64,000 nt of DNA. Origin: Pyrinomonadaceae bacterium. Its GTDB lineage: Bacteria > Acidobacteriota > Blastocatellia > Pyrinomonadales > Pyrinomonadaceae. The first letter of the stretch is position 1; each line of letters starts with the position of its first letter. Of the stretch, positions 6,036 to 46,834 are shown piece after piece. The notes beneath the pieces are model-generated. The model ran no database searches and was not told where the DNA came from. It was given only the letters and a program-made list of their open reading frames with translations. The stretch covers positions 2,478 to 66,477 of the forward strand of contig DASZDU010000161.1 of NCBI GenBank assembly GCA_035941655.1. The letters run 5' to 3'. The position numbers and the translations under genes were made by a program.

Positions 6036-9000
6036 ATGAGAACGATTGTGATTGGCTTCTTGTTAATCTTTGTCGTTGTCGTTCCGGCGCGCGGACAAGT
6101 GGCCTCAGCCAGCTTGCTCGGCGAGGTCAGAGACCAACTCGCGGCTCAGATACCCGGAGTCAAGGTGACGGCACGTCATGAGGCGATGGGCTTTTCCCGA
6201 AGCGTGCTCACCGGCAATGAAGGCAGTTATCGGCTTGACGACCTCTTGCCAGGGCGCTACGTCGTCTCGGCTGAGAAGCAGGGTTTTCGCACCTTGACGG
6301 TTGAGGCGATTGTGCTGGAGGTAAACCAGAAAGGAAAGCTCGACCTTGAGTTGCAAGTGGGAGAACCGCAAGAAACTGTGACCATCACGGCGGATGTGTC
6401 CCTCGTGCAAACTCATGACGCGACGGTCGGGTATCGGCTGGACACCAGGACGATTGGCGCTTTACCGCTCGATGGTCGCAATATCATCTCGCTCGTCACC
6501 CTTGGACCCGGAGCAATCCCCAGACAACTTGGCGGGTTCGGCCATGACATCATTAATGATGTGCAGGAAAATCGTGGCTCGGTGGCGATGAATCCTACGA
6601 TCAATGGCGCGCGCTCGACAATGAACACTTTTCTGCTCGACGGAGGGATGAACACCGACCTCAACACGCGCGCCATTGCCGTCAATCCGCCGATCGAATC
6701 GGTGCAGGAGTTTCGTATTCTGTCATCTTTACCCTCGGCGGAATTTGCGCAGTCAGGCGGGGGTGTTGCCGATGTGGTAACAAAGTCCGGAGGGCAAGTA
6801 TTTCATGGCAATCTTTTTGAATTTTTTCGACATGATTCGCTGGACGCGCTAAGTCTCTTTGCGGATCCGAACTTGCCGCGACCTGTCTTTCGGCAAAGCC
6901 AGTTCGGGGGATCTTTGGGTGGCCGATTGCCGGCTTCTTCAACTTTCTTCTTCGCCACCTACGAAGGCTTGCGTGGGAAGGCAGCCAGGACCTCCCAGAG
7001 TCTCGTCCCAGACGCGGCCTTGCGCAGCGGAGATTTTCGCGGCCGCAACACGATTTATGATCCCTTCAACGTAGACCCGGTAACGGGCGCAAGGCAGCCA
7101 TTTGCAAACAACATAATTCCGGCTGGCCGGATTGATCCTATAGCGCGAAAGTTTCTGGACACATATCAGCCGCTGCCCAATCGCCCCCTCAGCGGCGCGG
7201 TAAACTATCTCGATTCCACGCCGAACAAGAACACCAGAGATAGTCTCTCAGCGCGTCTTGATCATGAGTTTCGCGATCACGGTCGAGTGTTCGGTCGCTT
7301 CACGCTCAATGATGATCGCAACCGACTGGCGACTGCGTTTCCGGAACGGCCTACACAAGAGAGAGTACGTGCGCAACAGGCAGTAATCGGACACAGCACC
7401 AGCGGCCAGTCATGGCTCAATGAAGCCCGACTCTCTTTCACTCGACTGAAGGTTCTTGAGTTACCTGAGAGCGCCTTTCAAAGTGATGCGACGAGGGACC
7501 TCGGCATCACAAGTTTTCCCAGTGACCCCTTCAACTTCGGGTTGCCTTTCTTTCTCGTGAGTAACTTCAACCTGGTGCTGGATACGCCTAACCGGCCCCA
7601 GACACAGCGAGATAATCTGTGGAATCTGTCGGAAGGAATCACCTTCAACAAGGGCGCGCATACCCTGAAAACGGGCTTGCAGTTGATCTACTTCCAGCTA
7701 AATTATTTACAGAGCCAGCTTTCGCGTGGCCGCTATACCTTCACTGGAGCCTTCACCAGCAATCCCCAATCCCCTTCTCCTTCGGGTGATCCATTCGCAG
7801 ACTTCCTGCTCGGGTTCCCGCAGAGCACCGACCGCAGCGTCGGTCAGGCGCAGGCGTATTTGCGGCAAACCAATTATGCCGGTTACCTACACGACGACTG
7901 GCAAGTGAACGGCCGGCTAAACCTTAGTTTCGGTGTCCGCTATGAATACTTCTCTCCTTACCATGAGACGCGTAACAATCTGCTGAACCTGGATTACTCG
8001 ACCATCCCGGCCCCCCCGCAATTGGTTCGATCCAGTGAAGCAACTGAGCCGGACCGAAATAACTTCGCACCCCGCGTCGGTCTGGCCTGGCGGCCGCCGC
8101 TCTCCTTCCTGGAGCGTCGGAATACAGTGCTGCGTGCCGGATACGGAATCTATTACACCCCCGAGATCGCCACCGAAGTCTATGATCTGGTCCGCAACGG
8201 GATCATAAACGAGACGAACCAAACCGCTGGTGACGGCACTCCTCTGCTCACCTTGAGCAACGGCTTCCCGCAAACGGCGAGCACTGGTCTACGCAGCTAC
8301 TTCGGACTCGACCCGCGAGCGCGAACTCCTTACATGCAACACTGGAGTTTGGGCCTTCAACAAGAGCTTCCGACTAAGATTCTGCTGGACGTTGCTTATG
8401 TCGGTTCAAAAGGAACCAAGCTGGGCAAATCGCGGATTTTTAATACGCCCGCACACATCGAGACTGGCGAGAACTTGCCTCCGCGTCCAGGCGACCTTCA
8501 GTCGTTGCGCACGTGGCCCCAGCTCGGCAGGCTCATCCAAAGACAGCATATCTCCAACTCCTCTTTTCATTCGATGCAGATCAAGGCCGAGCGACGCTTT
8601 TCCGGTGACCTGGCGTTTCTGGCAAGCTTCGTTTGGGCCAAGTCAATTGATAACGGCGATACTGTGTTGAATGGACTCTTTGACAGTGTGACCGCGCAGG
8701 ATGAGAGGAATTTGCAACTGGAGCGCGGCCTTTCCTTCTTCGACGTGCGTAGGCGCTTGAGTGTCGGGTTTATTTACAATCTGCCGAAGCCGAATTTTCT
8801 GCGACCCCTGTTGGCCCACTGGCAGGCCAGCGGTATCCTGACGATGCAGGATGGCACACCGCTCAACCCCGTTTATTTTTTCTCCGACTTCGCCAACAGC
8901 GGCACACCAAACCGGCCCGATGTGGTGGCGGGACAGAGCATCTCGTTGCCGCGCAACCAACGTTCAGCAGACCATTGGTTCAACACCGCAGCTTTCCAGT

Positions 9001-9263
9001 CACCAGCACCGTTCAGCTTCGGCAACGCGGGACGCAACATTATCCCAGGACCTGGGAACCTCCTGTTCGATTTCGCTCTACATCGACGGTTTGAGATTCG
9101 TGAGGGGCAAGCTATTGAGTTTCGGGCGGAGTCTTTCAATCTCTTCAATCATCCCAACTATGGTATTCCGCTTCCCTTCGCCGACTTTGGCCCATTCTTC
9201 GGAAAAGTCGTGGCAGTTGGAGAGCCGCGCCGGATTCAATTTGCTTTGAGATTTGACTTTTAG
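6036..9263 (+). CDS. TonB-dependent receptor with an N-terminal carboxypeptidase-regulatory-like domain
   Basis: RBS aaagga before ATG 6036. Signal peptide MRTIVIGFLLIFVVVVPARGQ. CarboxypepD_reg-like segment (GSYRLDDLLPGRYVVSAEKQGF), a long beta-barrel and a terminal aromatic residue (..ALRFDF). Confidence 0.9.
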   Translation: MRTIVIGFLLIFVVVVPARGQVASASLLGEVRDQLAAQIPGVKVTARHEAMGFSRSVLTGNEGSYRLDDLLPGRYVVSAEKQGFRTLTVEAIVLEVNQKGKLDLELQVGEPQETVTITADVSLVQTHDATVGYRLDTRTIGALPLDGRNIISLVTLGPGAIPRQLGGFGHDIINDVQENRGSVAMNPTINGARSTMNTFLLDGGMNTDLNTRAIAVNPPIESVQEFRILSSLPSAEFAQSGGGVADVVTKSGGQVFHGNLFEFFRHDSLDALSLFADPNLPRPVFRQSQFGGSLGGRLPASSTFFFATYEGLRGKAARTSQSLVPDAALRSGDFRGRNTIYDPFNVDPVTGARQPFANNIIPAGRIDPIARKFLDTYQPLPNRPLSGAVNYLDSTPNKNTRDSLSARLDHEFRDHGRVFGRFTLNDDRNRLATAFPERPTQERVRAQQAVIGHSTSGQSWLNEARLSFTRLKVLELPESAFQSDATRDLGITSFPSDPFNFGLPFFLVSNFNLVLDTPNRPQTQRDNLWNLSEGITFNKGAHTLKTGLQLIYFQLNYLQSQLSRGRYTFTGAFTSNPQSPSPSGDPFADFLLGFPQSTDRSVGQAQAYLRQTNYAGYLHDDWQVNGRLNLSFGVRYEYFSPYHETRNNLLNLDYSTIPAPPQLVRSSEATEPDRNNFAPRVGLAWRPPLSFLERRNTVLRAGYGIYYTPEIATEVYDLVRNGIINETNQTAGDGTPLLTLSNGFPQTASTGLRSYFGLDPRARTPYMQHWSLGLQQELPTKILLDVAYVGSKGTKLGKSRIFNTPAHIETGENLPPRPGDLQSLRTWPQLGRLIQRQHISNSSFHSMQIKAERRFSGDLAFLASFVWAKSIDNGDTVLNGLFDSVTAQDERNLQLERGLSFFDVRRRLSVGFIYNLPKPNFLRPLLAHWQASGILTMQDGTPLNPVYFFSDFANSGTPNRPDVVAGQSISLPRNQRSADHWFNTAAFQSPAPFSFGNAGRNIIPGPGNLLFDFALHRRFEIREGQAIEFRAESFNLFNHPNYGIPLPFADFGPFFGKVVAVGEPRRIQFALRFDF

Positions 9264-9317: not shown

Positions 9318-10550
9318 TTGGGAGAAGAAGAATTTTCTCAAGACTCGAGGAGCATTTCGGGTTGGCGGAGAGCCAAAAACCTGGGGCGCTCCTTTTTCGT
9401 TTTTCTGTCCGCGTCATGCCTCTTCAATTTCGGCATGTTCATGTTTGTCCTGCTCTACAACCTCTATCTTCTGGATATCGGGTACAAGGAAGACTTCATC
9501 GGATGGATGTCGAGCGCCACGACGGCGGGCAACATGATAGGGACGGTGTTCGCCGTCATTTTAAGTCGGCGGATCGGATTACAAAGATCTGTCATCGTCT
9601 GTTTTGCTGCCACGGCCACCATCGCGGCAATGCGCTCATTGGTAGTTGGACGGGGGGCCTTGCTTGCCCTGGCCTTTGCCGCGGGCCTGTTCTTTGCCGT
9701 CTGGGCTATCTCGATTACGGTCATCGTGGCCCAGGCGACGACGGCTGAAATGCGTCCACTGGCCTTCAGCGTTTATCTCTCAACGGTAATCGGCATCGGC
9801 ATCATCGCAGAACCCACAGGGGGACATTTGCCGCTGTGGCTGAACTACCTGTTTGGGCCAACCGGTGCAGCCCAAAGCAAGCAGTGGGCTTTGTTGCTGA
9901 GCGCTGCCATTGTTTCGTTGGCGGTCTGGCCCACTATTTATCTGGGGCTGCCGCAGCCCGCGAAGGATGCACGAGCATCTTATCCGCGCAGCTCGTTCGT
10001 CCTGCGCTTCCTCATCGCGGTGGCTGTCTTGAACATCGCTACCGCCTCTTTCAATCCCTTTGCCAATACATATTTTGCGAACTACCTGAAAATGCCGACT
10101 CAGCATATCGGCTACGTCTTTTCCGGCAGCCAGCTGGCCCAGGTAATCGCAATTGTGCTCTCACCGTTGATCCTTAGGAAGTTTGGTATGATCTGGGGCG
10201 TTGTGAGCATGGAATTGGCTGCCGCATTTTCTCTCGCAACTCTGGCTACCGGGCCACCAGTGCTGCTTGCTACTCTGGCTTTTGCGGGCTACATGTCTTT
10301 TCAATGGATGGACGAGCCGGCCATGGAAAGCCTCTTGATGACCAGGGTCGAGCCACATGAGCGAAGTGGTGCGTCGGCGATGATGTACATGGTGATTTTT
10401 GCGTCTGGCGCACTGGCCGCGCCGGTGGCGGGTGCCGGCCTGGCACGCTTTGGGTATCCACCAATCGTGGTGGCGGCGTCGTTTTTACTATTACTCGGAG
10501 CTTTACTCTATGGCTTTTTGTTGAGAAGGTCCGACGGCGAGACCACGTAG
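9318..10550 (+). CDS. MFS transporter
   Basis: 410 aa with about 12 hydrophobic helices in a 6+6 layout. The start (TTG 9318) is uncertain. Confidence 0.8.
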   Translation: MGEEEFSQDSRSISGWRRAKNLGRSFFVFLSASCLFNFGMFMFVLLYNLYLLDIGYKEDFIGWMSSATTAGNMIGTVFAVILSRRIGLQRSVIVCFAATATIAAMRSLVVGRGALLALAFAAGLFFAVWAISITVIVAQATTAEMRPLAFSVYLSTVIGIGIIAEPTGGHLPLWLNYLFGPTGAAQSKQWALLLSAAIVSLAVWPTIYLGLPQPAKDARASYPRSSFVLRFLIAVAVLNIATASFNPFANTYFANYLKMPTQHIGYVFSGSQLAQVIAIVLSPLILRKFGMIWGVVSMELAAAFSLATLATGPPVLLATLAFAGYMSFQWMDEPAMESLLMTRVEPHERSGASAMMYMVIFASGALAAPVAGAGLARFGYPPIVVAASFLLLLGALLYGFLLRRSDGETT

Positions 10551-10589: not shown

Positions 10590-11729
10590 TTGCCCACCGC
10601 TTCACCTTGCACCGAATTGCAGAAAACTGACGGAGAAAATTTGACGACGAGCACCGAAACGATTGGTCACACGCTTAGTGTGGCCGCGACGTTCCGGGTC
10701 TACGATGGATATGGCAGCATGGGCGAATACATTGTACTGGGCATGGCCCGGGCTGGGGCGGTCGTGAATGTGATTCCACTTTTGATTGACCTGAACGGGA
10801 CTTTGGACGAGTTCAAGCAAATCTTCTGCGCTTCCCGGCCTGGGATAGTTGGTCCAGTTTTATATTTTTGTGGGCCAAGCGACTGGTTGGACCCATTTCG
10901 CGTAGTTGAGGATTTGTTTATCAACACCATGTGGGAAGCGGACCAACTTCCCGCAGTCTGGTCGGAACGGCTCAATCTGGCACGTGCCGTGATCGTGCCC
11001 TCGCGATTTCTGGTAGAGGTTTGCCGCCGCAGCGGCGTCAATGTTCCCGTTGAGGTCGTGGCCCAGGGAGTGGATCCCGACGTGTATCGCTACGAGCACA
11101 GACCGGAACGAGCTGGCTTGACGACGCTGATGGTCGGTACGGTCGATGATCGCAAACACATCGATGAGGGGATCGCTGCCTGGAAACTCGCCTTCGAGAG
11201 TGACCCGCAAGCTCGGCTCGTTATCAAATCCCGGTTTCAAAAAGGAAACTATGCCTTTGACGACCCGCGCATTAGCTTTTTCAAACAGGACGAGGCGACG
11301 AGGGGAATTGCCCACTGGTATCGTGAAGCCGATGTGCTCCTGGCGCTGGGAAATGAAGGCTTCGGACTTCCCCTCGTGGAAGGCATGGCGACCGGATTAC
11401 CGGTCATCGCTCTGAATTCCGAGGGGCAGGCTGATATCTGCGCTGAGGCTGGTGATTGTTTGTTGCCGGTTGACCCCAGTGCCTGGGTCCCTTACAACGA
11501 TCCTTACTGGGGACCGGCTGGTGTGCAAGCGGTGCCGGGAGTCGAAGATGTTGCGGAGCGACTGCGTTGGGTTGCCGGGCACAAAGACGAGGCGCGTGAA
11601 ATGGGCCGGGCGGCATCAGAATGGGCACGCACGCACCGGAACGTTTGGGCCATGGGACCAGCCATTCTCGAGGTAATGGAACATTACGCCAAACCTGCCC
11701 GCTCCTTGCGCCGTGCAATCAGTTTCTAA
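10590..11729 (+). CDS. glycosyltransferase, GT-B fold (Glycos_transf_1 / GT4-like)
   Basis: EX7E-type motif NEGFGLPLVEGMATGLPVIA. The start codon is uncertain (TTG). Confidence 0.85.
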   Translation: MPTASPCTELQKTDGENLTTSTETIGHTLSVAATFRVYDGYGSMGEYIVLGMARAGAVVNVIPLLIDLNGTLDEFKQIFCASRPGIVGPVLYFCGPSDWLDPFRVVEDLFINTMWEADQLPAVWSERLNLARAVIVPSRFLVEVCRRSGVNVPVEVVAQGVDPDVYRYEHRPERAGLTTLMVGTVDDRKHIDEGIAAWKLAFESDPQARLVIKSRFQKGNYAFDDPRISFFKQDEATRGIAHWYREADVLLALGNEGFGLPLVEGMATGLPVIALNSEGQADICAEAGDCLLPVDPSAWVPYNDPYWGPAGVQAVPGVEDVAERLRWVAGHKDEAREMGRAASEWARTHRNVWAMGPAILEVMEHYAKPARSLRRAISF

Positions 11730-12967
11730 ATTCGCCGCGCGATCTGATAGTTTGCCGCCTGGTCGCGATCGGCTGAGCTCAGACACTCACGATAGAGGCG
11801 ATTCAGACGCGCTGCCTGATGCTTGAGTGTTAATCCTCCAATAATCGTCCTTCGCGCTTCCAGACCTATTTCTTTTCGCAGCGCCTTGTTTCTCAAAAGG
11901 ACGGCGATGGCTTGTGCCAGCTCCTGGACATTGCCGGGTTGGATGAGCCAGCCGTTTTCTCCGTGACGAACAATCTCTTCAATTCCCTGATGGCGGCAGC
12001 CGATAATTGGCTTTCCGGTGGCCATCGCTTCGAGGTAGACGCAACCCATCGCTTCATCCTGGCTGGGCAGGGCAAAGACACTGCACCGTTGCATCGCCTC
12101 GGCAACAGCTCGGCGGCTTTGACGACCGACAACTTCGACCCGCTCGGCAATCTTCAATTCGTGAGAGAGCGCCACCAGGCGCGAGCGTTCCGGCCCGTCA
12201 TCAATAATCTGGTAGCGAAGACAGGGATAGTTCGGAGCCAGTTCTGCGACCGCCCGAATGACTAACTCATGTCCTTTATCTGGAACCAATCGTCCCACGC
12301 TGAGGATTGTCGGAATCGAGTCCTCGGCGTCGTTGCGCGGCGGACTGAACCGAGATGTATTGACGCCGTTGTAGATAACAGTTGGCTTGGTTAAACTGCC
12401 CATCGTATCAACCAGCACCCGGCGCACCGCCTCGCTGACACAAATACTTCTGGCGGCGTTTCGATAGACGAAGCGCGAAGAGCGGTTAACCCACCGACGC
12501 AGGAGTCCTTTTTCTCTCCGGGTGGAAAATACATCGAGTCCGTGAATGGTCACGAGAAAAGGGATCCGCAGTTGGCGAGAAAGCAGCGCAGCGGCGTGTC
12601 CACACGGCAAAGCTGACTGAGCATGGATCAGGTCAATCGGGTGATTCCGGTGCAAGAGACTCACGAAATGGGCCAGGCGTGCGTAGAGTAGCAAGCCCCA
12701 ACTTCCGTAAGCTAGCCTGCCTGGCAGTTGCGGATAACGAACCCGGATCGCCTTAGGCCCTCGCTCGCTGGACTTGAAAGTTCCCCAGGAGATTGGCTTG
12801 GCCGCAATGACTGTCGAGATGACGTTGAAATCTGAAAAGTATTCGAGCGGCTCAGCCACAAAGCTTCCGTCGATTTCATCACTCTCTGAGGGATAAAACG
12901 GTGTAAGCGTCAATACATGAATCGGTCGCGATTCACAGGCGTGGCCCGTAGATCTGGCGTAATCCAT
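11726..12967 (-). CDS. glycosyltransferase, GT-B fold (GT4-like)
   Basis: Motifs VGRLVPDKG and SQDEAMGCVYLEAMATGKPIIG. Its 3' end overlaps the convergent GT gene by 4 nt. Confidence 0.9.
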   Translation of the reverse strand: MDYARSTGHACESRPIHVLTLTPFYPSESDEIDGSFVAEPLEYFSDFNVISTVIAAKPISWGTFKSSERGPKAIRVRYPQLPGRLAYGSWGLLLYARLAHFVSLLHRNHPIDLIHAQSALPCGHAAALLSRQLRIPFLVTIHGLDVFSTRREKGLLRRWVNRSSRFVYRNAARSICVSEAVRRVLVDTMGSLTKPTVIYNGVNTSRFSPPRNDAEDSIPTILSVGRLVPDKGHELVIRAVAELAPNYPCLRYQIIDDGPERSRLVALSHELKIAERVEVVGRQSRRAVAEAMQRCSVFALPSQDEAMGCVYLEAMATGKPIIGCRHQGIEEIVRHGENGWLIQPGNVQELAQAIAVLLRNKALRKEIGLEARRTIIGGLTLKHQAARLNRLYRECLSSADRDQAANYQIARRI

Positions 12968-13175: not shown

Positions 13176-14465
13176 ATGAACATCAACGATTTCCTTCCGG
13201 ATAAGGTTTGTATCAACCTGGATCGAAGACCTGAGCGCTGGAAAAAGGTCCAGTTCCAGTTTGCCCTTCATGATCTCAAATCTGTAAGGCGCTTTCCGGC
13301 TTTGGATGGAGTTACGTTGGAAGTTCCACCCGGTTGGGAAGGCTCACCAGGGGCATACGGGTGTCTGCAGAGCCACCTGGCGGTCGTTCGGGAGGCGCGA
13401 GACAATGGACTAGCTCGAATTTGGATACTTGAAGATGATGTCGTTTTGGATTCTGATTTCAATGACAAATTCTCGCGCTATGCCGAACAAGTGCCATCCG
13501 ATTGGGATATGTTGTTTTTCGGCGGTCTGCATCTCTTTGTCCGTCCGCAGAGAATTTCAGACAACATCTCCAGGTTAGCTCATTCCTTCTCCACCTTTGC
13601 TTATGCGTTGAGGCAGACGGTTTACGATTCCTTTATCGAGATAAACTCGAGGTCGCTCATGCCGGTGGATCTAAATAATGTCGTCCTACAACAGAACTTC
13701 AACTGTTACTGTTTCGCGCCGCCTCTGGCCTGGGTGGCTGAGAATTATTCCGACACCCAGAACAAGTTTTTATATCCCTGGTATTTGAAGGAAGGACTAG
13801 TTATTGCCAGTCCTGAACTGGAGCGGATACAAAAGCAAAGCGTCGTGATTCTTGCCCACCGGGACTGCACTCCCGACCGCAGCCAAACTCGAAATTTGCA
13901 TTTCAAACTCGACTATTATTCAAAGTGGTATCCTCACGTTTCACTCCTGGTCGTGGAGCACGACCAGCGTCCCAGCCTTGATCCCCAGACCTTGCGCGAG
14001 GGTGTTCAATATGAATTTTTGCAGGACGGCAGTGGTTTCAATCCGGCGCGCTGCTTTCAATTGGGATTCGAACTGTTTGAGTCGAGGAAGGAGTTTTTTG
14101 TTTTTTCCGAGAGTGATATTCATTTGGACCGCGAGAATATCGTCGCTAATTTGGAGTTGTGTCTGCGATATGATTTTGTCAGCTCCTTCAGACATCTGAT
14201 TGATTTGTCGGAGGAAGACACCAGGAGGTTGATCGAGGGCAAAGAGATCGACCTCAGCGCGTATGGACGACGTGAACGAAGTGACATTTGCAGTGGCTCA
14301 TGCATTTTTACTCGAAAAGGCCTCCAGAGGATCGGAGGCTGGACAGACGCGAATGAGGCTACAAAAGATGAGACTCAATCACGAAGAGTGAGGCGCATGC
14401 TTTCGGTTTTTGAATCACCTAACCGGGCGCTGCGTTTGTCTCAAACCCAGTTTAATCCAAGGTAA
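13176..14465 (+). CDS. two-domain glycosyltransferase: N-terminal GT25-like, C-terminal GT7/GT2 (beta4GalT-like)
   Basis: N-terminal part: VCINLDRRPERW and WILEDDVV (GT25 pattern). C-terminal part (nt 13836..14360): FNPARCFQLGF, FVFSESDIHL (compare FVFSDVDLIP of beta4GalT) and IGGW. Confidence 0.8.
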   Translation: MNINDFLPDKVCINLDRRPERWKKVQFQFALHDLKSVRRFPALDGVTLEVPPGWEGSPGAYGCLQSHLAVVREARDNGLARIWILEDDVVLDSDFNDKFSRYAEQVPSDWDMLFFGGLHLFVRPQRISDNISRLAHSFSTFAYALRQTVYDSFIEINSRSLMPVDLNNVVLQQNFNCYCFAPPLAWVAENYSDTQNKFLYPWYLKEGLVIASPELERIQKQSVVILAHRDCTPDRSQTRNLHFKLDYYSKWYPHVSLLVVEHDQRPSLDPQTLREGVQYEFLQDGSGFNPARCFQLGFELFESRKEFFVFSESDIHLDRENIVANLELCLRYDFVSSFRHLIDLSEEDTRRLIEGKEIDLSAYGRRERSDICSGSCIFTRKGLQRIGGWTDANEATKDETQSRRVRRMLSVFESPNRALRLSQTQFNPR

Positions 14466-14505
14466 GCAGGGAGCCCAGCTTTCCCGAAACTGTCCGACGC
14501 GCCGC

Positions 14506-14607
14506 TTTCTCTGTGCAACCTCAGTGTTCTCTGTGTCTCGATGGTTGTTTTTCGCGCAATTCATTCACCACAGAGGCACAGCGAACGCGGAGCCTGCACA
14601 GAGAAAA
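14506..14607. repeat. palindromic intergenic element of about 100 bp, 'ctctgtg' family, copy 1 of 5
   Basis: Left arm tttctctgtgcaacctcagtgttctctgtgtctcgatgg. Right arm ccacagaggcacagcgaacgcggagcctgcacagagaaaa. Confidence 0.85.
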
Positions 14608-14679
14608 CAGGGCTCCGGCCAACTTTTCGGGCAAAGCTCAGGGAACCCTTTAGCTAATAATTCGAGGTTGATCAAGTCG

Positions 14680-15510
14680 ATGAATGCTGCGACAAGGCAG
14701 GGCTTTTTTGACATCAATGAGCTGCGGCGAGAGCTGGCACTCATAGATCTGGATCCGAAGTTTGGGCGCATGCTGAAGGACAAGAATGTGATGATCGTCG
14801 GGCCGGCCGAAACCATGCTGGGCACGCGCCAGGGAGAAATGATTGATTCGCACGACGTGGTGGTGAGGTTCAATACGGCGATTCAATACCTGCCCTTCCC
14901 GAGTGATCTGGCAAGAGATATCGGGACTCGAACGGACGTCTTGTATTGCAACAACGAAGTTTTAATGAATGGAATCTTTCATCAAAAAGGCATCTCGCAT
15001 GAAACCTTCAAGCAGGTCTGCGCCGTGGCCGGGATCAAATATCTGGTCAGTACGAATAATGACTTCACGTTCCCGGCTCATGATGAGCCCGAGCCGAAGT
15101 GCCGAGCTGAGTATCGAGCCTTCAAACTATTTCTTCAGCAGCAGGATATCGACATCGAATTCAGGATGTTGTATTCCACCAACGTAATCGTCAGGAGACT
15201 GCTGGACGGCTATGTCGGCAGAACAGGATTCCTGGGCATCGTGGATTTATTGGCTTACGACATTCGCCAGCTGACAATTACCGGGATGACTTTCTACCAC
15301 AAGGGTGGTCACCTTTTTCTTGAAGATTGCGTCAGCGAGCTGCATCCGATGAAGAACCATCAGGGGCTGGAGCCATCGGGGAATATTAAGGGCCATAATT
15401 CATATCTTGAGCTTGAATTGCTGGGGAAGCTCCTCATGCTTCATGGAGCAAAGCTGAAAATTGACGAACAAGTCCAAATGCTGATAGACGCTCGCCGCCC
15501 GAGAGAATAG
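14680..15510 (+). CDS. GT29 (sialyltransferase)-like glycosyltransferase
   Basis: L-motif-like VMIVGPAETMLGTRQGEMIDSHDVVVRFN...DIGTRTDVLYCN (14788..14955). S-motif-like RTGFLGIVDLLAYDIRQLTITGMTFY (15217..15297), followed by YH. VS-like HNSYLE (15394..15411). Start set at ATG 14680, downstream of the repeat. Confidence 0.7.
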   Translation: MNAATRQGFFDINELRRELALIDLDPKFGRMLKDKNVMIVGPAETMLGTRQGEMIDSHDVVVRFNTAIQYLPFPSDLARDIGTRTDVLYCNNEVLMNGIFHQKGISHETFKQVCAVAGIKYLVSTNNDFTFPAHDEPEPKCRAEYRAFKLFLQQQDIDIEFRMLYSTNVIVRRLLDGYVGRTGFLGIVDLLAYDIRQLTITGMTFYHKGGHLFLEDCVSELHPMKNHQGLEPSGNIKGHNSYLELELLGKLLMLHGAKLKIDEQVQMLIDARRPRE

Positions 15511-15515
15511 CCCGG

Positions 15516-16679
15516 ATGAAAATTACTCTGGTGATTGCTTCGCTTTACGGAGGTGGCGCGGAGCGCGTGGCGTCTAACATGGCGAACTACTGGACGGACA
15601 ACGGTTGGGAGATCTCGATCCTCACAATGTGCGGAAGCAACAACGCCTCCGCTTATGACCTGAATTCGAAGGTAGTTCGTCATGACCTTGGCGCCAGACC
15701 CTCTGGTCATTCCATGCCGGATCAGAGGTCATTAGCAGTGCTCCTTGAAATGCTCAACAATAGTTCTGTTGCTGAGCGGAGCATCTTCACCTTAGATTTT
15801 AATCTCATTCTCGCCTTACGAGATGCCATCATCAGCACTGCTCCCGAAGTCGTCATTTCATTCATCGATGTCACCAACGTAAGGACGCTGTTAGCCACTC
15901 GCGGACTGCGTTTTCCGGTCATTGTCACAGAGCATTGTGATCCCAACCACAATTATCTTGGCGAAGGATGGGAGGGCTTGCGAAGGCGTAGCTATACTCG
16001 CGCGGAGTGTCTGACAGTTCCCAACGAAGAGATCGTCTCTTATTTTTCAAGCGTCATGGATGGACGTGTGCGAGTGATACCTTACCCGATATCAAACGGT
16101 GCCCACGCTGTCGTTGCCGAAAGCAGCGCACGGCGCAAGGAAGGCCGGACGCTGCTGGCTGTGGGCAGGTTGGCACATGAGAAAGGCTTCGATATGTTGC
16201 TGGAGGCGTTCGCTCTAATCGCGCCGCGGCAGCCATCCTGGTGTTTGCAGATTTTGGGAGATGGAGAGCTGCGATCTCAGTTGGAGCAATCCGCGGCCGC
16301 ACTGGGACTGGCACAGCGGGTGCGATTCGGCAGCTTTACGAAGTTGCTCTTTGAGGTCATGCGGCAGGCAGACTTGTTCGTCCTGCCGTCGCGTTGTGAA
16401 GGTTTTCCGAATGTTCTGCTTGAGGCGATGGCTTGCGGGCTGGCGGCAGTGAGTTTTGACTGCCCCAGCGGTCCCAGGCATATCATCCGAGATGGAATTG
16501 ATGGAGTGCTTGTGCCGCCTCAGGATGTGCCAGCTTTGGCGGCGACGCTGGAACGCCTGATGGAGGATGAAGCCGAACGCCGGCGGTTGGCTGCAATGGC
16601 ACCACAGGTGTTGAAGCGTTTCGGGATGGAGAAGATCATGAACATGTGGTCGCAACTGGTGTTGGGTTGTAATGCTTAA
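15516..16679 (+). CDS. glycosyltransferase, GT-B fold (GT4-like)
   Basis: Motifs VGRLAHEKG and SRCEGFPNVLLEAMACGLAAVS. It starts 5 nt after the stop of the GT29-like gene. Confidence 0.9.
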   Translation: MKITLVIASLYGGGAERVASNMANYWTDNGWEISILTMCGSNNASAYDLNSKVVRHDLGARPSGHSMPDQRSLAVLLEMLNNSSVAERSIFTLDFNLILALRDAIISTAPEVVISFIDVTNVRTLLATRGLRFPVIVTEHCDPNHNYLGEGWEGLRRRSYTRAECLTVPNEEIVSYFSSVMDGRVRVIPYPISNGAHAVVAESSARRKEGRTLLAVGRLAHEKGFDMLLEAFALIAPRQPSWCLQILGDGELRSQLEQSAAALGLAQRVRFGSFTKLLFEVMRQADLFVLPSRCEGFPNVLLEAMACGLAAVSFDCPSGPRHIIRDGIDGVLVPPQDVPALAATLERLMEDEAERRRLAAMAPQVLKRFGMEKIMNMWSQLVLGCNA

Positions 16680-16702
16680 CGCGTAGTGGCGCAGTTTAAA
16701 GT

Positions 16703-16776
16703 TTTTCTCTGTGCAACCTCTGCGACCTCTGCGTCTCTGTGGAGAATTTCGATAACCAAGTACTTAACCACAGAGA
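16703..16776. repeat. 'ctctgtg' family element, copy 2 (right arm truncated)
   Basis: tttctctgtgcaacctctgcgacctctgcgtctctgtgg ... ccacagagatgac. Confidence 0.75.
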
Positions 16777-16809
16777 TGACAAATTGCGACACTACCGCTT
16801 AAAGCGTTC

Positions 16810-17544
16810 GTGAAAGTAATGAGGCCCACCAATAAGATAATTCAAAGCCTGTGGATCGGTTCAGAACTGTCCCTGATGGAGCGTTTATGCATAGCTTCAT
16901 TCCTGGCGCAGGGACATGAGTATCACTTGTATGTTTATGAAGACGTCAAGCACCTTCCTGACGGAACTCTAATCAAAGATGGGAACGAGATATTGCCCTC
17001 GTCCATGATCTTTCAATATCGTGAGTTCAAGTCGTATGCCGGGTTCTCAAACTTCTTTCGCTATAAACTTCTATTGGAGAAAGGGGGATGGTGGGTGGAT
17101 ACCGACATGGTTTGTTTGCGACCCTTCGACTTCGCGGACGCCTATGTCTTCTCGAGTGAAATGAGCGAGGGCCTGGAAGTGACTAACTGCGGAGCTATCA
17201 AGGCCCCCGCCGGCAGTGACGCGATGGGGTATGCCTGGCGAATCTGCCAACAGAAGACTATTGAGAATCTGGTGTGGGGAGAAACCGGTCCTGGATTAAT
17301 GGACCAGGTGGTGCGGCTTTTCTCGCTGGAAGAGTTTAGGCAACCGTCTCAAGTATTCTGCCCTATCAGTTATTGCGAGTGGGATAGCGTATTGCAGCCC
17401 GGTGCGGTGCGATCATTTGATAGCACCACGCATGCTGTGCATTTGTGGAATGAAATGTGGAGGCGCGCGTCTCTGGATAAAGACCAAAAGTTTCACCCGG
17501 ACTGTCTCTACGAAGAACTCAAAAGAAAACATTTGACTCAATAG
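16810..17544 (+). CDS. GT32-like glycosyltransferase (DXD sugar-binding region, Gb3-synthase-like)
   Basis: Motifs IQSLWIG and FSNFFRYKLLLEKGGWWVDTDMVCLRP (SD..R...L...GG.Y.DTD pattern). Confidence 0.8.
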   Translation: MKVMRPTNKIIQSLWIGSELSLMERLCIASFLAQGHEYHLYVYEDVKHLPDGTLIKDGNEILPSSMIFQYREFKSYAGFSNFFRYKLLLEKGGWWVDTDMVCLRPFDFADAYVFSSEMSEGLEVTNCGAIKAPAGSDAMGYAWRICQQKTIENLVWGETGPGLMDQVVRLFSLEEFRQPSQVFCPISYCEWDSVLQPGAVRSFDSTTHAVHLWNEMWRRASLDKDQKFHPDCLYEELKRKHLTQ

Positions 17545-19646
17545 AGAAACGCATACCGTTCGAGGAACTTCTCGTATCTTTCAGCGGCGATGACATGTTC
17601 TAAAACCACATTCTTATCATAGCCTCTTGGGATAAATGTCTTCATCATTTCTTCTTTCCAGACTTCAACACGACTCGGGTCACCTCTATTTTCAAAATAA
17701 CCCCTGACGATAATATCCCAATCGCGGATTCTTTCGACGAACGATGGATGAAAGAATTTCTTGAGCTTCGGATTTATCGCTAGTTCGTAGTGAGTCCGCT
17801 TGTAAGCGTTCGCCATGGCTTTGCAAAACAATTCCCTGCCCTGTTGAGAGAGGTCTTTCCCGGCCCGGTAAATTATTTCAAGACAATCCACAGCGCCAAC
17901 GACATACCTGACCCCGTCATAGATGCCCCAGATATACAGTTCATCAAGCGCCGTCCCGGCATGCGCTCCCAATGATTGAAAATTTTCTACCGTAGCATCG
18001 GCGAGATTAAGATTGTCATGATCCATGAAGATAACCTTGATTTGCCATTGTCCGTTGGCCCAAACGCTTCTCAATCCGACATTTCGCGGGACAAACGACT
18101 CGCCATTGGTGCTGGCTCTGACTGCCAGTAAGGTTCCCCAGAACTTTCCCATCTGCTGCATCGCGGCTGAGAAGTTATGGTCCGCCTGGGCGCGGTTCGC
18201 CGCAACCTTGAACGCGTCGTCCACATATTGCCCGTAGCTTCGATACTTACCAGCAGGCGGCTGGTAAAGACATAGGACCTCATCCAAAACCTCATCGGCC
18301 AACCGTCTATCATCCAGACTGGAGTGTCCGGTCTTCAGACCGTTCGTGAAATAGGTTTCGGCGCCGTCGTCAGACAGATAAGCGGCCAACCGGTCCAGTC
18401 TAAAAGAGCTGGTGCCGGAGATGATCGCCTGCGTCGGCGAAGCGTGTCCGAGAAACTGTACGGTTAGGCCAACGTCACCGGGGATGTCGAACAACGGCGA
18501 TTCATGCTCATCATTAAATGAATCGATTACCGCTCTCATGGCCACGCGCATTTCACCGAATTCACGTCCGAAAATCTCAGGCTCGGTAAAATAGTCAAGA
18601 ATATTTTCGCCAGTCCCGTTTACCTGAACGTTGTAGATGGATGATCTCGAATGAAAGGTAGGCAAGGGGGCTTCGGTCGCATGTATCGAGCGATAAATGC
18701 CTGACAACCTGGAAACTGACTTCGACTCGTATCGCAGGAGCCATTGAGTCGAGCCGCCGTCAAGACGGTGAGACGGAGGAACCAATTCGCCTTGACGCTT
18801 GTGTACGACGCCAAGCGGATAGCGTCCTCTCCGCCCGGCTCGCTTGATTTCAAACTCCAGATCACTTCCGGGAGGTTTGATGACTATCACGACAGCGGTT
18901 AAGGGATACTCGACGAGCGCGTTTAGTTCAGACCCGGTTGAATCGGACACCCAATAGACGTCATATGTTTGGCGGAGTTTTTCGAGAATGCGAGCCTCGT
19001 AGGCAGGCATTTGAGCTAAGGCATGTTTGTCTTCTACTTCAACGGAGGAGGGCTGAGCAGGATCGAGGTCCATGAGACCCCTGGAGGTATTGACGTGCCT
19101 GAGGATTCGATCAACCACCTCGTCGGGTTGGAAGATGTAACGCGCCAGTGAGAGCTTGCACTCACGGCGCGAGAGGGCAATAAAGTTTATCAGCGCCCTT
19201 TTAGTCGTTCGACTTCCCCTGATTTGATTGTGGACCCGCTCGAGTCTTTCCAGTTTGCGCCGCAACTCAAAAGTGAAACCGCTAAGGTCGATTGCCGAGA
19301 AGCCCTCCTGTAAAACGGTATCACTAACTTTCAAAGGTGGGCCGATGTCTGGTTTAAGTCTGAGTTGAGTCAGGAGAACATCGAATTCTTGTAGATTCTC
19401 TGGAGGGATTTTTAACACCTGATGCTCCAGCATCAGGATGGTAAGCCGCCTGATCTCCCAACTGTCACCTTCATTTCCCTGTGAGACAGCAAGCAGCTTG
19501 AGCATCAAACTCCGATTGTATGATGGGCACTGCAGGAATGAGTTAAAGAGTTCGTAGGCCCGAAACGGATCATCGAATTCAGTTGCCAGGGTATTGAACA
19601 AGCGCTCCGGCTTAAGGGTCGAGGAATGCCTTGCTAATGTTTTCAT
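17538..19646 (-). CDS. hypothetical 702-aa cytoplasmic protein (possible kinase-like fold)
   Basis: Uninterrupted ORF with no signal peptide and low GC. It contains VVIVIKPPGSDLEFEIKRAG and a D-x4-N loop (FMDHDNLNL). No family recognised. Confidence 0.75.
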   Translation of the reverse strand: MKTLARHSSTLKPERLFNTLATEFDDPFRAYELFNSFLQCPSYNRSLMLKLLAVSQGNEGDSWEIRRLTILMLEHQVLKIPPENLQEFDVLLTQLRLKPDIGPPLKVSDTVLQEGFSAIDLSGFTFELRRKLERLERVHNQIRGSRTTKRALINFIALSRRECKLSLARYIFQPDEVVDRILRHVNTSRGLMDLDPAQPSSVEVEDKHALAQMPAYEARILEKLRQTYDVYWVSDSTGSELNALVEYPLTAVVIVIKPPGSDLEFEIKRAGRRGRYPLGVVHKRQGELVPPSHRLDGGSTQWLLRYESKSVSRLSGIYRSIHATEAPLPTFHSRSSIYNVQVNGTGENILDYFTEPEIFGREFGEMRVAMRAVIDSFNDEHESPLFDIPGDVGLTVQFLGHASPTQAIISGTSSFRLDRLAAYLSDDGAETYFTNGLKTGHSSLDDRRLADEVLDEVLCLYQPPAGKYRSYGQYVDDAFKVAANRAQADHNFSAAMQQMGKFWGTLLAVRASTNGESFVPRNVGLRSVWANGQWQIKVIFMDHDNLNLADATVENFQSLGAHAGTALDELYIWGIYDGVRYVVGAVDCLEIIYRAGKDLSQQGRELFCKAMANAYKRTHYELAINPKLKKFFHPSFVERIRDWDIIVRGYFENRGDPSRVEVWKEEMMKTFIPRGYDKNVVLEHVIAAERYEKFLERYAFLY

Positions 19647-19852: not shown

Positions 19853-20107
19853 CTACTTCTTGCCACCCTTTTTACCACCGCCACCGCCGCCTGAAACCAC
19901 GCCTTTAGGACCTTTGACGCTCTTGCCGCCTTTGCCGCCTTTCCCGCCTTTGCCCCCTTTGCCCCCTTTACCTTTCTTCGGGCCAAGTGGGCTAACGCCG
20001 CCGAGCGCCAGAGCGAGCGCGATAGCTAGTTGTTGGGCGCATGAGCGTTCCAGGATGATCGCAACCACATCTGAACCTTTACCACCATTCTTTTTTTTGC
20101 CTCCCAT
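19853..20107 (-). CDS. 84-aa Gly/Lys-rich small protein with a collagen-like (G-X-K)n tract
   Basis: AAGGAG lies 9 nt upstream of ATG 20107. Sequence: MGGKKKNGGKGSDVVAIILERSCAQQLAIALALALGGVSPLGPKKGKGGKGGKGGKGGKGGKSVKGPKGVVSGGGGGGKKGGKK. It is on the same strand as both neighbours. Confidence 0.55.
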   Translation of the reverse strand: MGGKKKNGGKGSDVVAIILERSCAQQLAIALALALGGVSPLGPKKGKGGKGGKGGKGGKGGKSVKGPKGVVSGGGGGGKKGGKK

Positions 20108-20289
20108 CGTTATCATCTCCTTCAAGTCGAAATAGAATTCTGCTGGTCTTCGGTTTGCGAGGGAATGCCGCCGGCAATCAACCTTGACGAGTGGAAATCA
20201 GCGAAATATTCGACGAATGACCCACGCCTACAGTGCGATGCCGGAGAAGAGGGATTTCTTGTCCGGCAAAGACATCCAACCGAGCTCGA

Positions 20290-23200
20290 TTACGGATTCG
20301 TAGCCTTATCCTTGGTCGCTGGTTTGATCCTAAAGTCATCGAGACGATCTTTGCCTGGGGGTGGAACTGGCCGGGCGGGCGCCGGCGCCGCAGGCGTTGC
20401 CGGAACACAGACCGCTTGGCTGGCCGGCGCGGGTCTTCCGTCCGTCACCCTAAAAATGCCCCACAAACCAAATTGGGCCTTGTCGGGAACGAAAGCGCTA
20501 TACAGGTAATCGCCGGCGATTTGCGCTGGCCCACCAGCCTCGTCTATCACAATGTCGTAATGGGCCGTCGAGCCAAGATTATCCAGAGAACCCATCCATT
20601 GCGAGAGTTTGTTATCGCCTATCTTTGTAGAGCCCGCGGCATAAGGGTTTCTCTGCCAGACGTGGCCGTGCAGGCTGAAGACCTGCACGATTCCTGTGCC
20701 CGGAGGATGCAGCATCCGGAAGCGAACCCTGGCTCCTTTCGGCGCAGTGAAGATTGGGGTTTGCGGTTCGGCCTTGACCAACCCATTCGACACTGAACAT
20801 TGATTATCACCATTTGCGGCAAAGGTATTAGAGCTCGCATTGCCGAACCGATAATAGGTTGGCTCCGTGCCATAGTTAACTGCACTGATCGTTCTCTGCG
20901 AACTGGGATTACCTACCTTCAGGTCCTCCGTCATCATTACGACGAACTCGCGGAACCCTTTTCGCAGATTGATGTTGGCAGCGGCACGGGTCAAGAGCTT
21001 GGTGTTTGGGTCTTCGAGTGGCCCGCAGCTAAGTTGTGCGGGTTTCCCGTTCTTATCCAATCCCTCGCAGGTAATCTGAGCCTCAGTTGTCCCTTCCGGC
21101 TCGATCACCATCGAGCCGTAAAGACCGTTGATGTGCTGCAGCAGCGGATCTGAGGGCATCAAGTTGAGAGCGCCGAATTCAATTGGCGTATAGTTCAGGG
21201 TTCCGTTTTGATCTCTCTTGATACTGCCGGCGTACCACTGGTATTGAGCCGGGGAGCCGCCGATTGTTGCCACCTGATTCTTACTTGTGTCGTAGCCGAC
21301 GTTAATGCCGCTGCTGGTGGTCGCATCGTAAGCGAGGAGTTGCGGCTGCAGGCCGACCATTTTAGACGGCTTGAGCTGAAGCACCGTCGCCGGTTGGTTC
21401 ACCACCGCAGGTTGGTCGAAAGGAGGTTGAAGGGTGTATTTCTGTTGAAGAACCTGGGCCGACGAACTAATTCCGTTTCTCAAAGTGACATTGATGCAAT
21501 CGCCCGCGGCGGCGCGCAAAATGAGCGGTTCCCTGGGCACGCCTTTCTTAAGCTGACCGTTGGCGAGGTCGGCAGTGAAGACATACATCAACCCGAGCGG
21601 ATTTGTGAGCTGTGTATTGGGCGTGCCGGTTCCCTGTCCGCGACTGTTGAGGATGAGTGCCTTTTCCGGAAGACCGTGTTCGACGTCTATCGCCGTAATA
21701 TCGAAATTCTTAATCCTGGTTGACGGATGATCTTTCGGGCAGGTCGAGTAATCAGTTTTGTTCGTCGCGGCAACCGGATTGTTCGGCAACGGCTGCAAGT
21801 TCTTAGCCTCCGCGGTCGGGCTGTAAGCGCGCAGCAGTCCCCACATCCCGTTTGTGATGCCATTGTCCCCGGCGCTGGCAACGTATAGATGATCCGCAAA
21901 GTTGCACGGAGCGCTCGTATCGTCCGGACATGGATTCACTGTCTGGGTGGAAGACAGCGGCGATCGGAAATGCATCTCAGTGTGCTCGGACAGCCCCATC
22001 GCCTGGCTGCTTCGATACCCTGAATTGTTCCATGCCGACTCAGCGAGCCAATTCACTCCGCGTATGTTGAAGAAGTGGGCCAACTGGTGAGCGCCCACCA
22101 GTAGACGCACTTGCACCGGATCATTTTGATAAGTACGCAGCAGAGGTGTAAAGGGATCGCCATTGGGAGCAAGTGTCGGCGCCTGCTTCAAGGTGGAGTC
22201 GAACGCAGACGACAGGTCTGCGAACTGGCCCACGCGCCACGGCACTGGCTCGTTGCGATAATTCAGTGAAAAAGTGCCGACGGTCTGGCCGCTGCTAATC
22301 AGTTGCGGTGTACTCGGAGTGGCCACGCGGTTGGCCGGATCAATGTTTCTGTACCCGATGGCTGGATCGGGACTGGGAATGACTGGGCCCGTACCGCCCA
22401 CATTCCTGCTGTAAGCGAGTTGAAAGTCCTGAAACTCCAGCGCGAACTCGCGGAAGCTATCTGCCCCGTTAGTGCCTGAGAGAATGTCGGCCTTCCAACT
22501 GGTGGGGCCTCCATCGGGGCGCACAGGCGAAGCACCCGCACCACCCATGATTTTACCGGTTTCGGAATTACGCCAGCTCGCAGTCGACGGTTCGACCAGT
22601 AGACCAGCGTAGAGACCGGCCTGCTGGTGTGTGGACGGGCCATAGTGGTCGTGAGTGAAAACGGTTCCCAGGGTGCGGTCCTTGCCGCCATTGTCCAGCA
22701 CCGGGTCGGCGTACCACCGCTGTACGGTCGTTTGCGCGCCGGCCCATACGTGGCAGCGCGCCTGATTCTCGTTCTTCGAGCAATCAATGATGCCGGAAGG
22801 TGGATCCTTGAGTTTGAGTCCAGGATTGGACTGTCCGTTCCACGTCCCGCCCGTGTTGTTTATCGCGTGGACAATTTCCTGGACCTCTGTCGGACTGAAT
22901 GTGCCGTCTTCGTAGTTGTACCCGTTTGCGGCGCCGTCGGAGCCTTGCACGTCAAACTTCACGAGGTGGACGTGCTGACCTAGAATGTCCGTCGGCGTGC
23001 GTACTTGAAAATCATCTGCCTTGTAGTAATTGGGCACGAGGTTGGTATGCCACACCTCTACGACCTCTCCTGAATTGGCGCGGAAGAAAAGAGGCTCAGG
23101 TGCGCGCCGCGGAATATTCGCATTAGACGGGTCAGTTACATAGTTGCTTGTCGGGATGACGTCTTCCCACAAAGAGAGTATTCGCTGCTGCGGAAAGTGC

Positions 23201-27227: not shown

Positions 27228-27279
27228 CGGGGCATCACCTCGCCACACGTTAATTAAGTTTGCGGACCTGGAACCCGGC

Positions 27280-46818: not shown

Positions 46819-46834
46819 TATTGTTGGAAGTTAC

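Follow-up and report, generated by a model that had tools for sequence, protein, structure and literature searches.

We analysed a 64,000-nucleotide stretch of DNA from a member of the Pyrinomonadaceae (phylum Acidobacteriota; assembly GCA_035941655.1, contig DASZDU010000161.1), hereafter referred to as the window, which carries an operon of glycosyltransferase (GT) genes on its plus strand between positions 13176 and 17544. Protein families were read across the window with Pfam, at its curated gathering scores, and with NCBIfam. The four operon genes encode four proteins with five GT domains: a 429-amino-acid (aa) fusion protein, in which a GT25 domain (PF01755; 13176–13790, aa 1 to ~205) precedes a second GT-A domain predicted on an AlphaFold2 (AF2) model (13818–14465, aa ~215–429); a GT29-like enzyme of 276 aa (PF00777; 14680–15510); a GT4 enzyme, here termed GT4c (Pfam Glycos_transf_1, 142 bits; 15516–16679); and a GT32-like enzyme of the Och1/Gb3-synthase type (PF04488 and PF04572; 244 aa; 16810–17544). 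The GT29-like and GT4c genes are 5 bp apart, and the two wider spacers—214 bp between the GT25/GT-A and GT29-like genes, 130 bp between the GT4c and GT32-like genes—hold, respectively, a palindromic element of ~110 nt built from CTCTGTG/CACAGAG heptads (14495–14615) and a partial copy of it (16695–16790). A preliminary description of this DNA had placed the four genes correctly, and every motif it quoted is present. For the GT29 gene, a mechanically called open reading frame (ORF) of 366 aa from position 14410 was rejected, its first 90 codons traversing the palindromic element; we set the start at the ATG at 14680, because homologues of 272–280 aa begin at the equivalent ATG. No transmembrane segment or signal peptide was predicted in any GT of the operon, and on this sequence-based prediction each of them is soluble and cytoplasmic. 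When the operon was scanned for promoters and terminators, no more signals were returned than in shuffled sequence.

The GT25, GT29 and GT32 memberships proposed in the preliminary description held up when checked with hidden Markov models, the Pfam scores lying above the cut-offs in all three cases. For the GT29-like protein, PF00777 scored 31.7 bits against a gathering score of 23, with profile positions 58–129 aligned, and the same family was recognised in 108 of the 120 homologues listed (of 136), some of which NCBI names 'glycosyltransferase family 29 protein'. The protein carries sialylmotif L and, on inspection, counterparts of motifs S, III and VS. An alignment of 24 homologues, which also served as the GT29 profile, is invariant in the blocks GPA.T..G..G, V.R.N, D.G...D, GRTG, GMTFYH.GGH and GH.S..EL—with R63, N65, T182, G183, Y206, H207, H239 and E244 among the unchanging residues, H239 being the catalytic-type histidine of motif VS. 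Compared by hhalign with the catalytic domain of human ST6GAL1 (query sequence 100% identical to PDB 6qvs), this profile gave a probability of 95.4% and an E-value of 1.7e-8 over 55 columns at motif L, where the alignment stopped; the residue sets T182-G183, Y206-H207 and H239/E244 follow in the expected order, and by eye RTGFLGI pairs with SSGMLGI (motif S), FYHK with YYYQ (motif III) and HNSYLE with HPLLYE (motif VS, with the catalytic histidine).

Structure prediction led to the same family. The AF2 model of the GT29-like protein (pLDDT 83.8, pTM 0.86) was searched with Foldseek, and its top 30 PDB matches were all mammalian GT29 enzymes—ST3Gal1, ST6GalNAc2, ST8Sia3 and ST6Gal1—with E-values of 6.5e-8 to 7e-5 and TM-scores of 0.40–0.55. 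No match outside GT29 fell under an E-value of 1e-3 in the PDB, and GT42, GT52 and GT80 were not found in the top 50. In a library of viral structures, the best named matches were herpesvirus and poxvirus sialyltransferases, a Mimiviridae GT29 and a phage 'GT29'. Membership of GT29 is well supported at both the sequence and the fold level. All GT29 entries matched in the PDB are disulfide-bonded eukaryotic membrane enzymes, and the eukaryotic and viral enzymes (ST3Gal1, ST6Gal1, ST6GalNAc2, ST8Sia3) share the fold of the window protein at an identity of only 15–18%. Unlike the animal enzymes, the window protein has no type-II membrane anchor, lacks the cysteines of motifs L and S—none was seen on inspection of the 24-sequence alignment—and is predicted to be cytoplasmic rather than Golgi-luminal; moreover, its motif III abuts motif S and motif VS follows 30 residues on, a spacing that differs from that of the animal proteins.

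In the 429-aa protein, PF01755 matched the N-terminal half (aa 13–107) with 36.5 bits against a cut-off of 24, and the metal/nucleotide motif E86-D87-D88 (EDD within ILEDDV) is invariant in 28 homologues. Sequence matches in the PDB reached ColGalT1, with E-values down to 4e-4, and the top Foldseek matches of the model were mimivirus R655 (E 5.8e-12), human ColGalT1 and a bacterial β-1,4-galactosyltransferase of family GT25 (8xlz). The AF2 model (pLDDT 88) comprises two GT-A domains, the second showing alternating β/α elements, and its Foldseek matches include the two-GT-A enzymes LH3, K4CP, CHSY3 and LARGE1. This second domain had been likened to GT7 β4-galactosyltransferases in the preliminary description, an assignment that we rejected. 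It has no Pfam family in the window protein; the GT7 families PF13733 and PF02709 gave no match at E-values up to 10 in 15 family members, two of which showed weak GT2 or Glyco_tranf_2_2 matches; and hhalign against human B4GALT1 (query sequence checked against PDB 6fwu) returned a probability of 19%, over 50 columns of the FNR..GF..FxFSDxD stretch only. A profile of the domain found no glycosyltransferase among PDB sequences, only chance matches such as HSP82 and RcsB. With the whole two-domain model, Foldseek did list B4GALT1, at an E-value of 2e-6, ranked behind GT25 and two-domain GT2-type enzymes. We class the second domain as a generic GT-A fold of unassigned family, and its resemblance to β4-galactosyltransferases is local motif similarity, not membership.

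The GT32-like protein matched both PF04488 (Gly_transf_sug; 31.8 bits against 23) and PF04572 (Gb3_synth; 28.1 bits against 22.3), and its DTD motif sits within WWVDTDMV. Its homologues carry the same two families, under the JGI name 'mannosyltransferase OCH1-like enzyme'. Relatives number 2980, and the best 120 of these are metagenomic or come from metagenome-assembled genomes (MAGs), with Pyrinomonadaceae, Blastocatellia and one Gammaproteobacteria as the only named sources. NCBIfam holds no specific model for the 429-aa, GT29-like and GT32-like proteins, and the GT4 matches to its models lie below threshold. The best one for GT4c, a PglH-like model, scored 169 bits where 600 are required, and GT4c is therefore not PglH.

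Upstream of the operon, a plus-strand unit begins with the gene for a TonB-dependent-receptor-like outer-membrane β-barrel (TBDR; 5937–9263; Pfam OMP_b-brl_4, 713 bits, plus CarboxypepD_reg), followed by a transporter of the major facilitator superfamily (MFS; 9318–10550; Pfam MFS_1, 66.5 bits) with ~10–12 hydrophobic segments. GT4a starts 39 bp past the MFS gene on the same strand (10590–11729; Glycos_transf_1, 41.4 bits), and among PDB sequences it comes closest to chlorovirus B736L and PimA. GT4b lies on the minus strand (11726–12967; Glycos_transf_1, 144 bits; Glyco_transf_4, 85 bits), convergent with GT4a and divergent from the operon, with 208 bp before the 429-aa gene; its best NCBIfam match, an EpsE-like model at 135 bits, is far under the cut-off of that model. 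Pfam thereby confirmed the three GT4 genes and the single MFS gene reported earlier. The MFS protein matched no PDB sequence and no sialic-acid or sugar-transporter model in NCBIfam, where its best E-value was 0.007.

To place the locus in a wider context, we compared it with related loci (numbered with the prefix L) by running tblastn with the window proteins on all loci fetched, one of which, L012, is the complete chromosome of a relative (OY969111.1). The order TBDR–MFS–GT4a–GT4b(−)–GT25/GT-A–GT29–GT4c–GT32 recurs in L001, L009, L010, L011 and L012, and in L034 without GT4c; a gene for a 702-aa protein and a giant gene come next wherever the contig is long enough. In L011, the identities to the window proteins are 85% for the TBDR, 78% for the MFS protein, 83% for GT4a, 73% for GT4b, 72% for the GT25 domain, 67% for the second GT-A domain, 61% for GT29, 70% for GT4c, 68% for GT32, 70% for the 702-aa protein and 79% for the giant protein. 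Across the syntenic relatives, the GT genes are 43–84% identical and the flanks 65–87%; GT4a is 74–84% identical in L001, L009–L012 and L034. The shared gene order and the L011 identities point to vertical inheritance, with the GTs diverging somewhat faster. An NCBI protein from a Pyrinomonadaceae MAG is 100% identical to the 429-aa protein. Furthermore, both the GT25/GT-A–GT29 and the GT4c–GT32 junctions of L011 are ATGA stop/start overlaps, and from these sequences the operon genes appear translationally coupled in the relatives.

The GT29 gene itself is far less widespread than its operon partners. A pattern scan for the GT29 subfamily in 185,579 species-representative genomes found only 26 loci, all in MAGs: those at ≥49% identity are labelled Pyrinomonadaceae, Blastocatellia, uncultured Acidobacteriota and, for four loci, 'uncultured Heliomicrobium', and those at 33–42% identity come from Vicinamibacterales, other Acidobacteriota, Bacteroidota and Ignavibacteria. 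Among 1.84 billion cluster representatives, a profile search for GT29 returned 59 clusters with E≤1e-30, rising to 860 with E≤1e-10 and to 2633 with E≤1e-3; the names of the distant clusters are uninformative, one being an Ignavibacteriae 'GT29 family protein'. In two more distant Pyrinomonadaceae (L007 and L008), the arrangement GT25/GT-A–(GINT1_N-type protein)–GT4–GT32–GT4(−) stands at another genomic site without GT29, and the homologue counts are 136 for GT29, 925 for GT25/GT-A and 2980 for GT32. By these two observations, GT29 is accessory to a GT25/GT-A–GT4–GT32 core that is itself widespread. As a side observation, a GINT1_N-type protein (PF24793, a family that we take to be named after a plant sphingolipid glycosyltransferase) is encoded beside the GT25/GT-A gene in some relatives (L001, 7566–8495; L008, 11277–12134), and in protein P0229 (714 aa) such a domain is fused to GT25/GT-A.

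A second Blastocatellia clade (L002 and L013–L020) has a different gene directly upstream of GT29: the GT25/GT-A gene is replaced by one for a protein, here called 'U', of ~230–290 aa that has no Pfam family and bears the motifs YDIFICGG… and KLDADV (L018, 9189–9950; L016, 5714–6397; L002, 9099–9977). In L002, L013 and L014, a sulfotransferase gene precedes 'U'. GT29 always directly follows a GT-A-type gene, either GT25/GT-A or 'U'—the latter may be of this type, as read by eye from KLDADV. An orthologue of the TBDR (68–87% identity) lies upstream of GT29 in L002, L009, L011, L013, L015–L020 and L034, and in Blastocatellia loci the MFS gene upstream of GT29 never occurs without the TBDR. Within the 'U' clade the TBDR–MFS pair is present in L002, L013 and L015–L020, and the contig of L014 begins too near the locus to show it. 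Finally, GT29-like homologues of 33–46% identity in MAGs of Bacteroidota and Ignavibacteria (L003, 6912–16496; L005, 1–10708; L006, 6807–14009) stand in clusters of B12-binding radical-SAM enzymes, S-adenosylmethionine (SAM) methyltransferases, a SPASM protein and an arylsulfotransferase, with no classic glycan genes. A Polysacc_synt flippase was also noted in the L005 cluster.

The base composition of the operon had been taken in the preliminary description as a hint of acquired segments. The 4.4-kb GT region does have a low GC content—0.510 against a mean of 0.541 (standard deviation 0.012), the lowest 4.4-kb stretch of the window—but the spread of 45–67% given earlier came from counting single lines and is a small-sample artefact. 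The GC content at third codon positions (GC3) is ordinary: the four operon genes range from 0.54 to 0.63 and the other genes from 0.55 to 0.66, so that the GT25/GT-A gene lies just below the range and the other three inside it. Being confined to codon positions 1 and 2, the dip reflects amino-acid composition. With the gene order shared with seven related Acidobacteriota MAG loci, the GTs about as diverged as their flanks and GC3 ordinary, recent horizontal acquisition is not supported. The highest GC content of the window (0.59) falls where two long ORFs overlap on opposite strands (32017–32904, plus; 32487–34709, minus); the plus-strand one, to which Pfam assigns no family, is unlikely to be a real gene.

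The CTCTGTG heptad occurs 22 times in the window against 6.6 expected, a count that none of 100 shuffles reached. With its complement CACAGAG, it forms an imperfect palindrome of ~100 nt, present in five intergenic copies within the 64 kb: the two in the operon spacers and others at 31795–31870, 46720–46830 and 60930–61030. The predicted hairpin of the copy at 14495–14615 reaches -57 kcal/mol and that at 16695–16790 reaches -21, the extreme in the window being -62. Rfam has no family for the element, which looks like a REP- or MITE-like sequence (repetitive extragenic palindrome; miniature inverted-repeat transposable element). The preliminary description had it interrupting the operon; two copies do sit in its spacers, but both lie between genes, and none of the four ORFs is disrupted. 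The palindrome is absent from both orthologous junctions of L011, where ATGA overlaps stand in its place; the two operon copies are therefore lineage-specific insertions that uncoupled an ancestrally tight operon while leaving its ORFs intact.

We also inspected the remaining neighbourhood. The 702-aa protein is encoded on the minus strand (17538–19646), the 3' end of its gene overlapping that of GT32 by 7 bp; nothing in Pfam, NCBIfam or the PDB sequences matches this protein, which is 49–71% identical in eight related loci. Between it and the next large gene lies a minus-strand ORF of 90 aa (19853–20125) with no family match that consists mostly of GGK repeats (GKGGKGGKGGKGGKGGK); genes of similar size occupy this position in L002 (91 aa) and L001 (81 aa). 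The gene at 20290–26289 (minus) encodes a secreted MnxG-like multicopper oxidase of 1999 aa (PDB 9bxa, E 1.2e-66; no Pfam match), with a stretch of ~100 aa rich in Ser, Thr, Pro and Ala after the signal peptide. By tblastn, this gene stays beside the GT locus in L011, L013 and L034, and genes for proteins of 1957 aa (L001) and 1916 aa (L002) stand at the matching position. Upstream of it, a copper cluster (26475–31519, minus) encodes two proteins of the SCO1/SenC family, one of which also has a heavy-metal-binding domain, together with a cytochrome-D1-like β-propeller and a periplasmic binding protein to which a cytochrome c is fused; two of its genes are found between GT29 and GT4c in L002 and L014. 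Scanned with Pfam, the 29 remaining large ORFs of the window showed no sugar-nucleotide synthesis gene, CMP-sugar (cytidine monophosphate-sugar) synthetase, Wzx, Wzy or Wzz, and no initiating transferase, waa, lpx, GT9 or GT30 gene; GT9, GT30 and lpx were likewise not seen in the annotated flanks of L001, L002, L007 and L008. The operon thus consists of GTs only, with no Wzx, Wzy, Wzz or initiating phosphoglycosyltransferase anywhere in the 64-kb window. The absence of nucleotide-sugar synthesis, flippase, polymerase and chain-length genes had been stated correctly before, as had the point that the gene content of the window does not fix the acceptor.

Several known systems offer comparisons. 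Neisseria (lgtA–E plus lst) and Haemophilus (lic2A, lgtC and lic3A) have GT-only loci for the outer core of lipooligosaccharide (LOS), with no flippase or polymerase, in which lipid A-core serves as the cytoplasmic acceptor for a β-hexosyltransferase of GT25, an α-hexosyltransferase and a sialyltransferase that acts terminally. The window operon resembles them as a GT-only cluster that includes GT25 and has no flippase or polymerase. However, the α-transferase of those loci belongs to GT8 and the sialyltransferase to GT52, GT42 or GT80, against GT32 and GT29 in the window; no link to lipid A-core genes was seen here; and the organism lives in soil, where it has no host to mimic. To our knowledge, the characterised bacterial GT25 enzymes all act on LOS. 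In ColGalT1, too, GT25 shares the chain with another GT-A domain, and ColGalT1, LH3, the E. coli K4 chondroitin polymerase and LARGE1 all carry two GT-A domains per chain, as predicted for the 429-aa protein; in the latter, by contrast, GT25 is N-terminal and the DxD position of the second domain varies (ESD, DSD, ESG or DSN).

For GT29, bacterial members were reported bioinformatically in 2018 from α-, γ- and ε-Proteobacteria, without a transmembrane domain and without the conserved cysteines (Petit et al., PMC5811610). Like the window protein, they are described as soluble and lacking the conserved cysteines; they have all four sialylmotifs, of which S, III and VS are matched by eye in the window protein; on these descriptions, that set differs in being proteobacterial, the window clade belonging to Acidobacteriota with relatives in Bacteroidota and Ignavibacteria. 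In the literature searched, this was the sole relevant result, no biochemical characterisation of a bacterial GT29 was found, and nothing relevant turned up on sialic or nonulosonic acids in Acidobacteria or Blastocatellia. Plant GT29-like proteins have been proposed as transferases of 3-deoxy-D-manno-oct-2-ulosonic acid (Kdo) or 3-deoxy-D-lyxo-hept-2-ulosaric acid (Dha) for rhamnogalacturonan-II (PMC5811610; PMC11288761). By description they are comparable—a GT29 fold in hosts not known for sialic acid, with CMP-Kdo as the proposed donor—but they are Golgi membrane proteins acting on pectin, unlike the soluble protein of the window. The existence of bacterial GT29 enzymes, in Proteobacteria, and the NCBI label 'glycosyltransferase family 29' on these Acidobacteriota proteins are thus already known; new, in descriptive terms, are an Acidobacteriota clade of soluble GT29-like proteins, their fixed place after a GT-A enzyme, the constant TBDR–MFS neighbours and the fusion of GT25 with a GT-A domain.

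On this basis, we propose—at about even confidence—that the locus is a vertically inherited glycoconjugate locus of Pyrinomonadaceae, in which a lipid-linked oligosaccharide would be assembled stepwise in the cytoplasm and capped by the GT29-like enzyme with a keto-acid sugar from a CMP-activated donor. The operon GTs would extend the oligosaccharide one step at a time on the cytoplasmic side of the inner membrane, with a lipid anchoring the acceptor. The likeliest acceptors are lipid A-core, which would give an LOS-type outer core, and a membrane glycolipid initiated by the upstream GT4 enzymes. One or two hexoses would be added by the GT25/GT-A fusion; the GT29-like enzyme would then transfer a CMP-activated 2-keto-3-deoxy acid sugar, Kdo or a nonulosonic acid, onto the sugar just added; GT4c and the GT32-like enzyme would add α-linked hexoses; and either the co-transcribed MFS protein or machinery encoded at another site would carry the finished lipid-linked glycan outward. 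Since machinery for undecaprenyl phosphate-linked assembly is absent from the window, lipid A-core or a glycolipid is the acceptor suggested, and in the glycolipid case the MFS protein could act as a flippase. Staphylococcus aureus offers a parallel in LtaA, an MFS flippase encoded beside the glycolipid synthase YpfP. As to the donor, CMP-Kdo is present in any bacterium that makes lipopolysaccharide (LPS), and because LPS makers possess it and Kdo/Dha transfer has been proposed for the plant proteins, Kdo would be the most economical candidate; a nonulosonic acid fits the data equally well.

Several observations weigh against this proposal. No CMP-sugar synthetase was found in the window or in any Pfam-annotated ±10-kb flank of the related loci. 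The LOS assignment is drawn by analogy, since no waa or lipid A genes lie nearby, and the LOS model does not explain the constant partnership of TBDR and MFS. The radical-SAM and methyltransferase setting of the distant homologues suggests that the family may not always handle sialic-type sugars, and the second GT-A domain may be non-catalytic, as its DxD position is not strictly conserved. A bolder extension of the proposal, which we consider unlikely, would make the product an acidic glycolipid or LOS similar to gangliosides or globosides and capped by a keto acid, with the Blastocatellia GT29 as a bacterial CMP-nonulosonate or CMP-Kdo transferase standing near the ancestry of eukaryotic sialyltransferases; families GT25, GT32 and GT29 also make the β-Gal, α-Gal and sialyl linkages of animal glycolipids.

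Among the alternatives, the setting of the distant homologues bears on the possibility that the protein uses the sialyltransferase fold for a different chemistry, with another donor or a small-molecule acceptor and no sialic- or Kdo-type cap at all. The company of B12-radical-SAM enzymes, methyltransferases and an arylsulfotransferase rather than classic glycan genes would suit such a role, as would the fact that Pfam aligns the motif-L third of the GT29 model only and the unusual S–III–VS spacing, established by inspection against ST6GAL1. Across the family, however, motifs L, S, III and VS do not vary, the histidine of VS included, and at E<1e-3 the complete fold has no counterparts other than CMP-sialic-acid enzymes, which leaves this explanation improbable.

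The constancy of the TBDR–MFS pair raises another possibility, in which glycosylation is coupled to transport: the two proteins would import an environmental sugar for the GTs, such as a scavenged sialic or keto-acid sugar, or export and recapture a soluble glycosylated product. In Blastocatellia, no other neighbour accompanies the GT29-like gene as constantly as this pair does; L015–L020 show only TBDR, MFS, 'U' and GT29, with GT25/GT-A, GT4c and GT32 not found; and GT4a follows the MFS gene closely on the same strand. Yet the MFS protein matches neither a sialic-acid or sugar-transporter model nor a PDB chain, and the window holds no gene for a salvage kinase, lyase or CMP-synthetase. TBDRs are very numerous in Acidobacteria, so that adjacency to one is weak evidence, and we regard a transport-coupled role as rather improbable.

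The neighbouring oxidase suggests a third alternative, protein O-glycosylation, in which the GTs would build a glycan for a secreted protein such as the MnxG-like enzyme. The persistence of this gene beside the GT locus in L011, L013 and L034, with genes of similar size in L001 and L002, the copper-cluster genes between GT29 and GT4c in L002 and L014, and the Ser/Thr/Pro-rich N-terminus of the translated oxidase all agree with it. On the other hand, no oligosaccharyltransferase, flippase or initiating transferase was found in the window, the GTs are predicted to be cytoplasmic and the target secreted, and in L007 and L008 the core GT module stands at another site without the oxidase; co-location within one family may reflect inherited gene order only. 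Overall, O-glycosylation likewise appears rather improbable. Lastly, a recently acquired island of 'animal-type' or viral genes is very improbable and already largely refuted: the low GC content of the region and the repeat elements flanking genes inside the cluster are outweighed by an order and orientation shared with related MAG loci at flank-like divergence, a dip confined to codon positions 1 and 2 with GC3 within or just below the range of other genes, a repeat element spread throughout the window, and proteins that lack eukaryotic transmembrane stems and the cysteines of motifs L and S.

The label 'animal-type' itself, under which the preliminary description had grouped these families, is misleading: a bacterial GT25 structure (8xlz) is in the PDB, bacterial GT29 proteins were described in 2018 (PMC5811610) and the best 120 of the 2980 relatives of the GT32-like protein are metagenomic or from MAGs. 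That description had named, as a point that would count against it, a common conserved LPS-core locus in related genomes, and as far as conservation goes this is what we find. The case carries a caution for annotation, as finding 'animal-type' GT families in a bacterial genome is not by itself a sign of horizontal transfer. Eukaryotic GT29 enzymes are described in the literature as hard to produce; should the proposed keto-acid cap prove true, the window protein would be a naturally soluble, disulfide-free GT29 usable in glycoengineering. Judged from its sequence, the locus is a credible candidate for a surface-glycan pathway of Pyrinomonadaceae, and its conserved clade of soluble GT29-like proteins, with a clear operon context, provides candidates for addressing which donor and acceptor such enzymes use and how the GT29 family arose.

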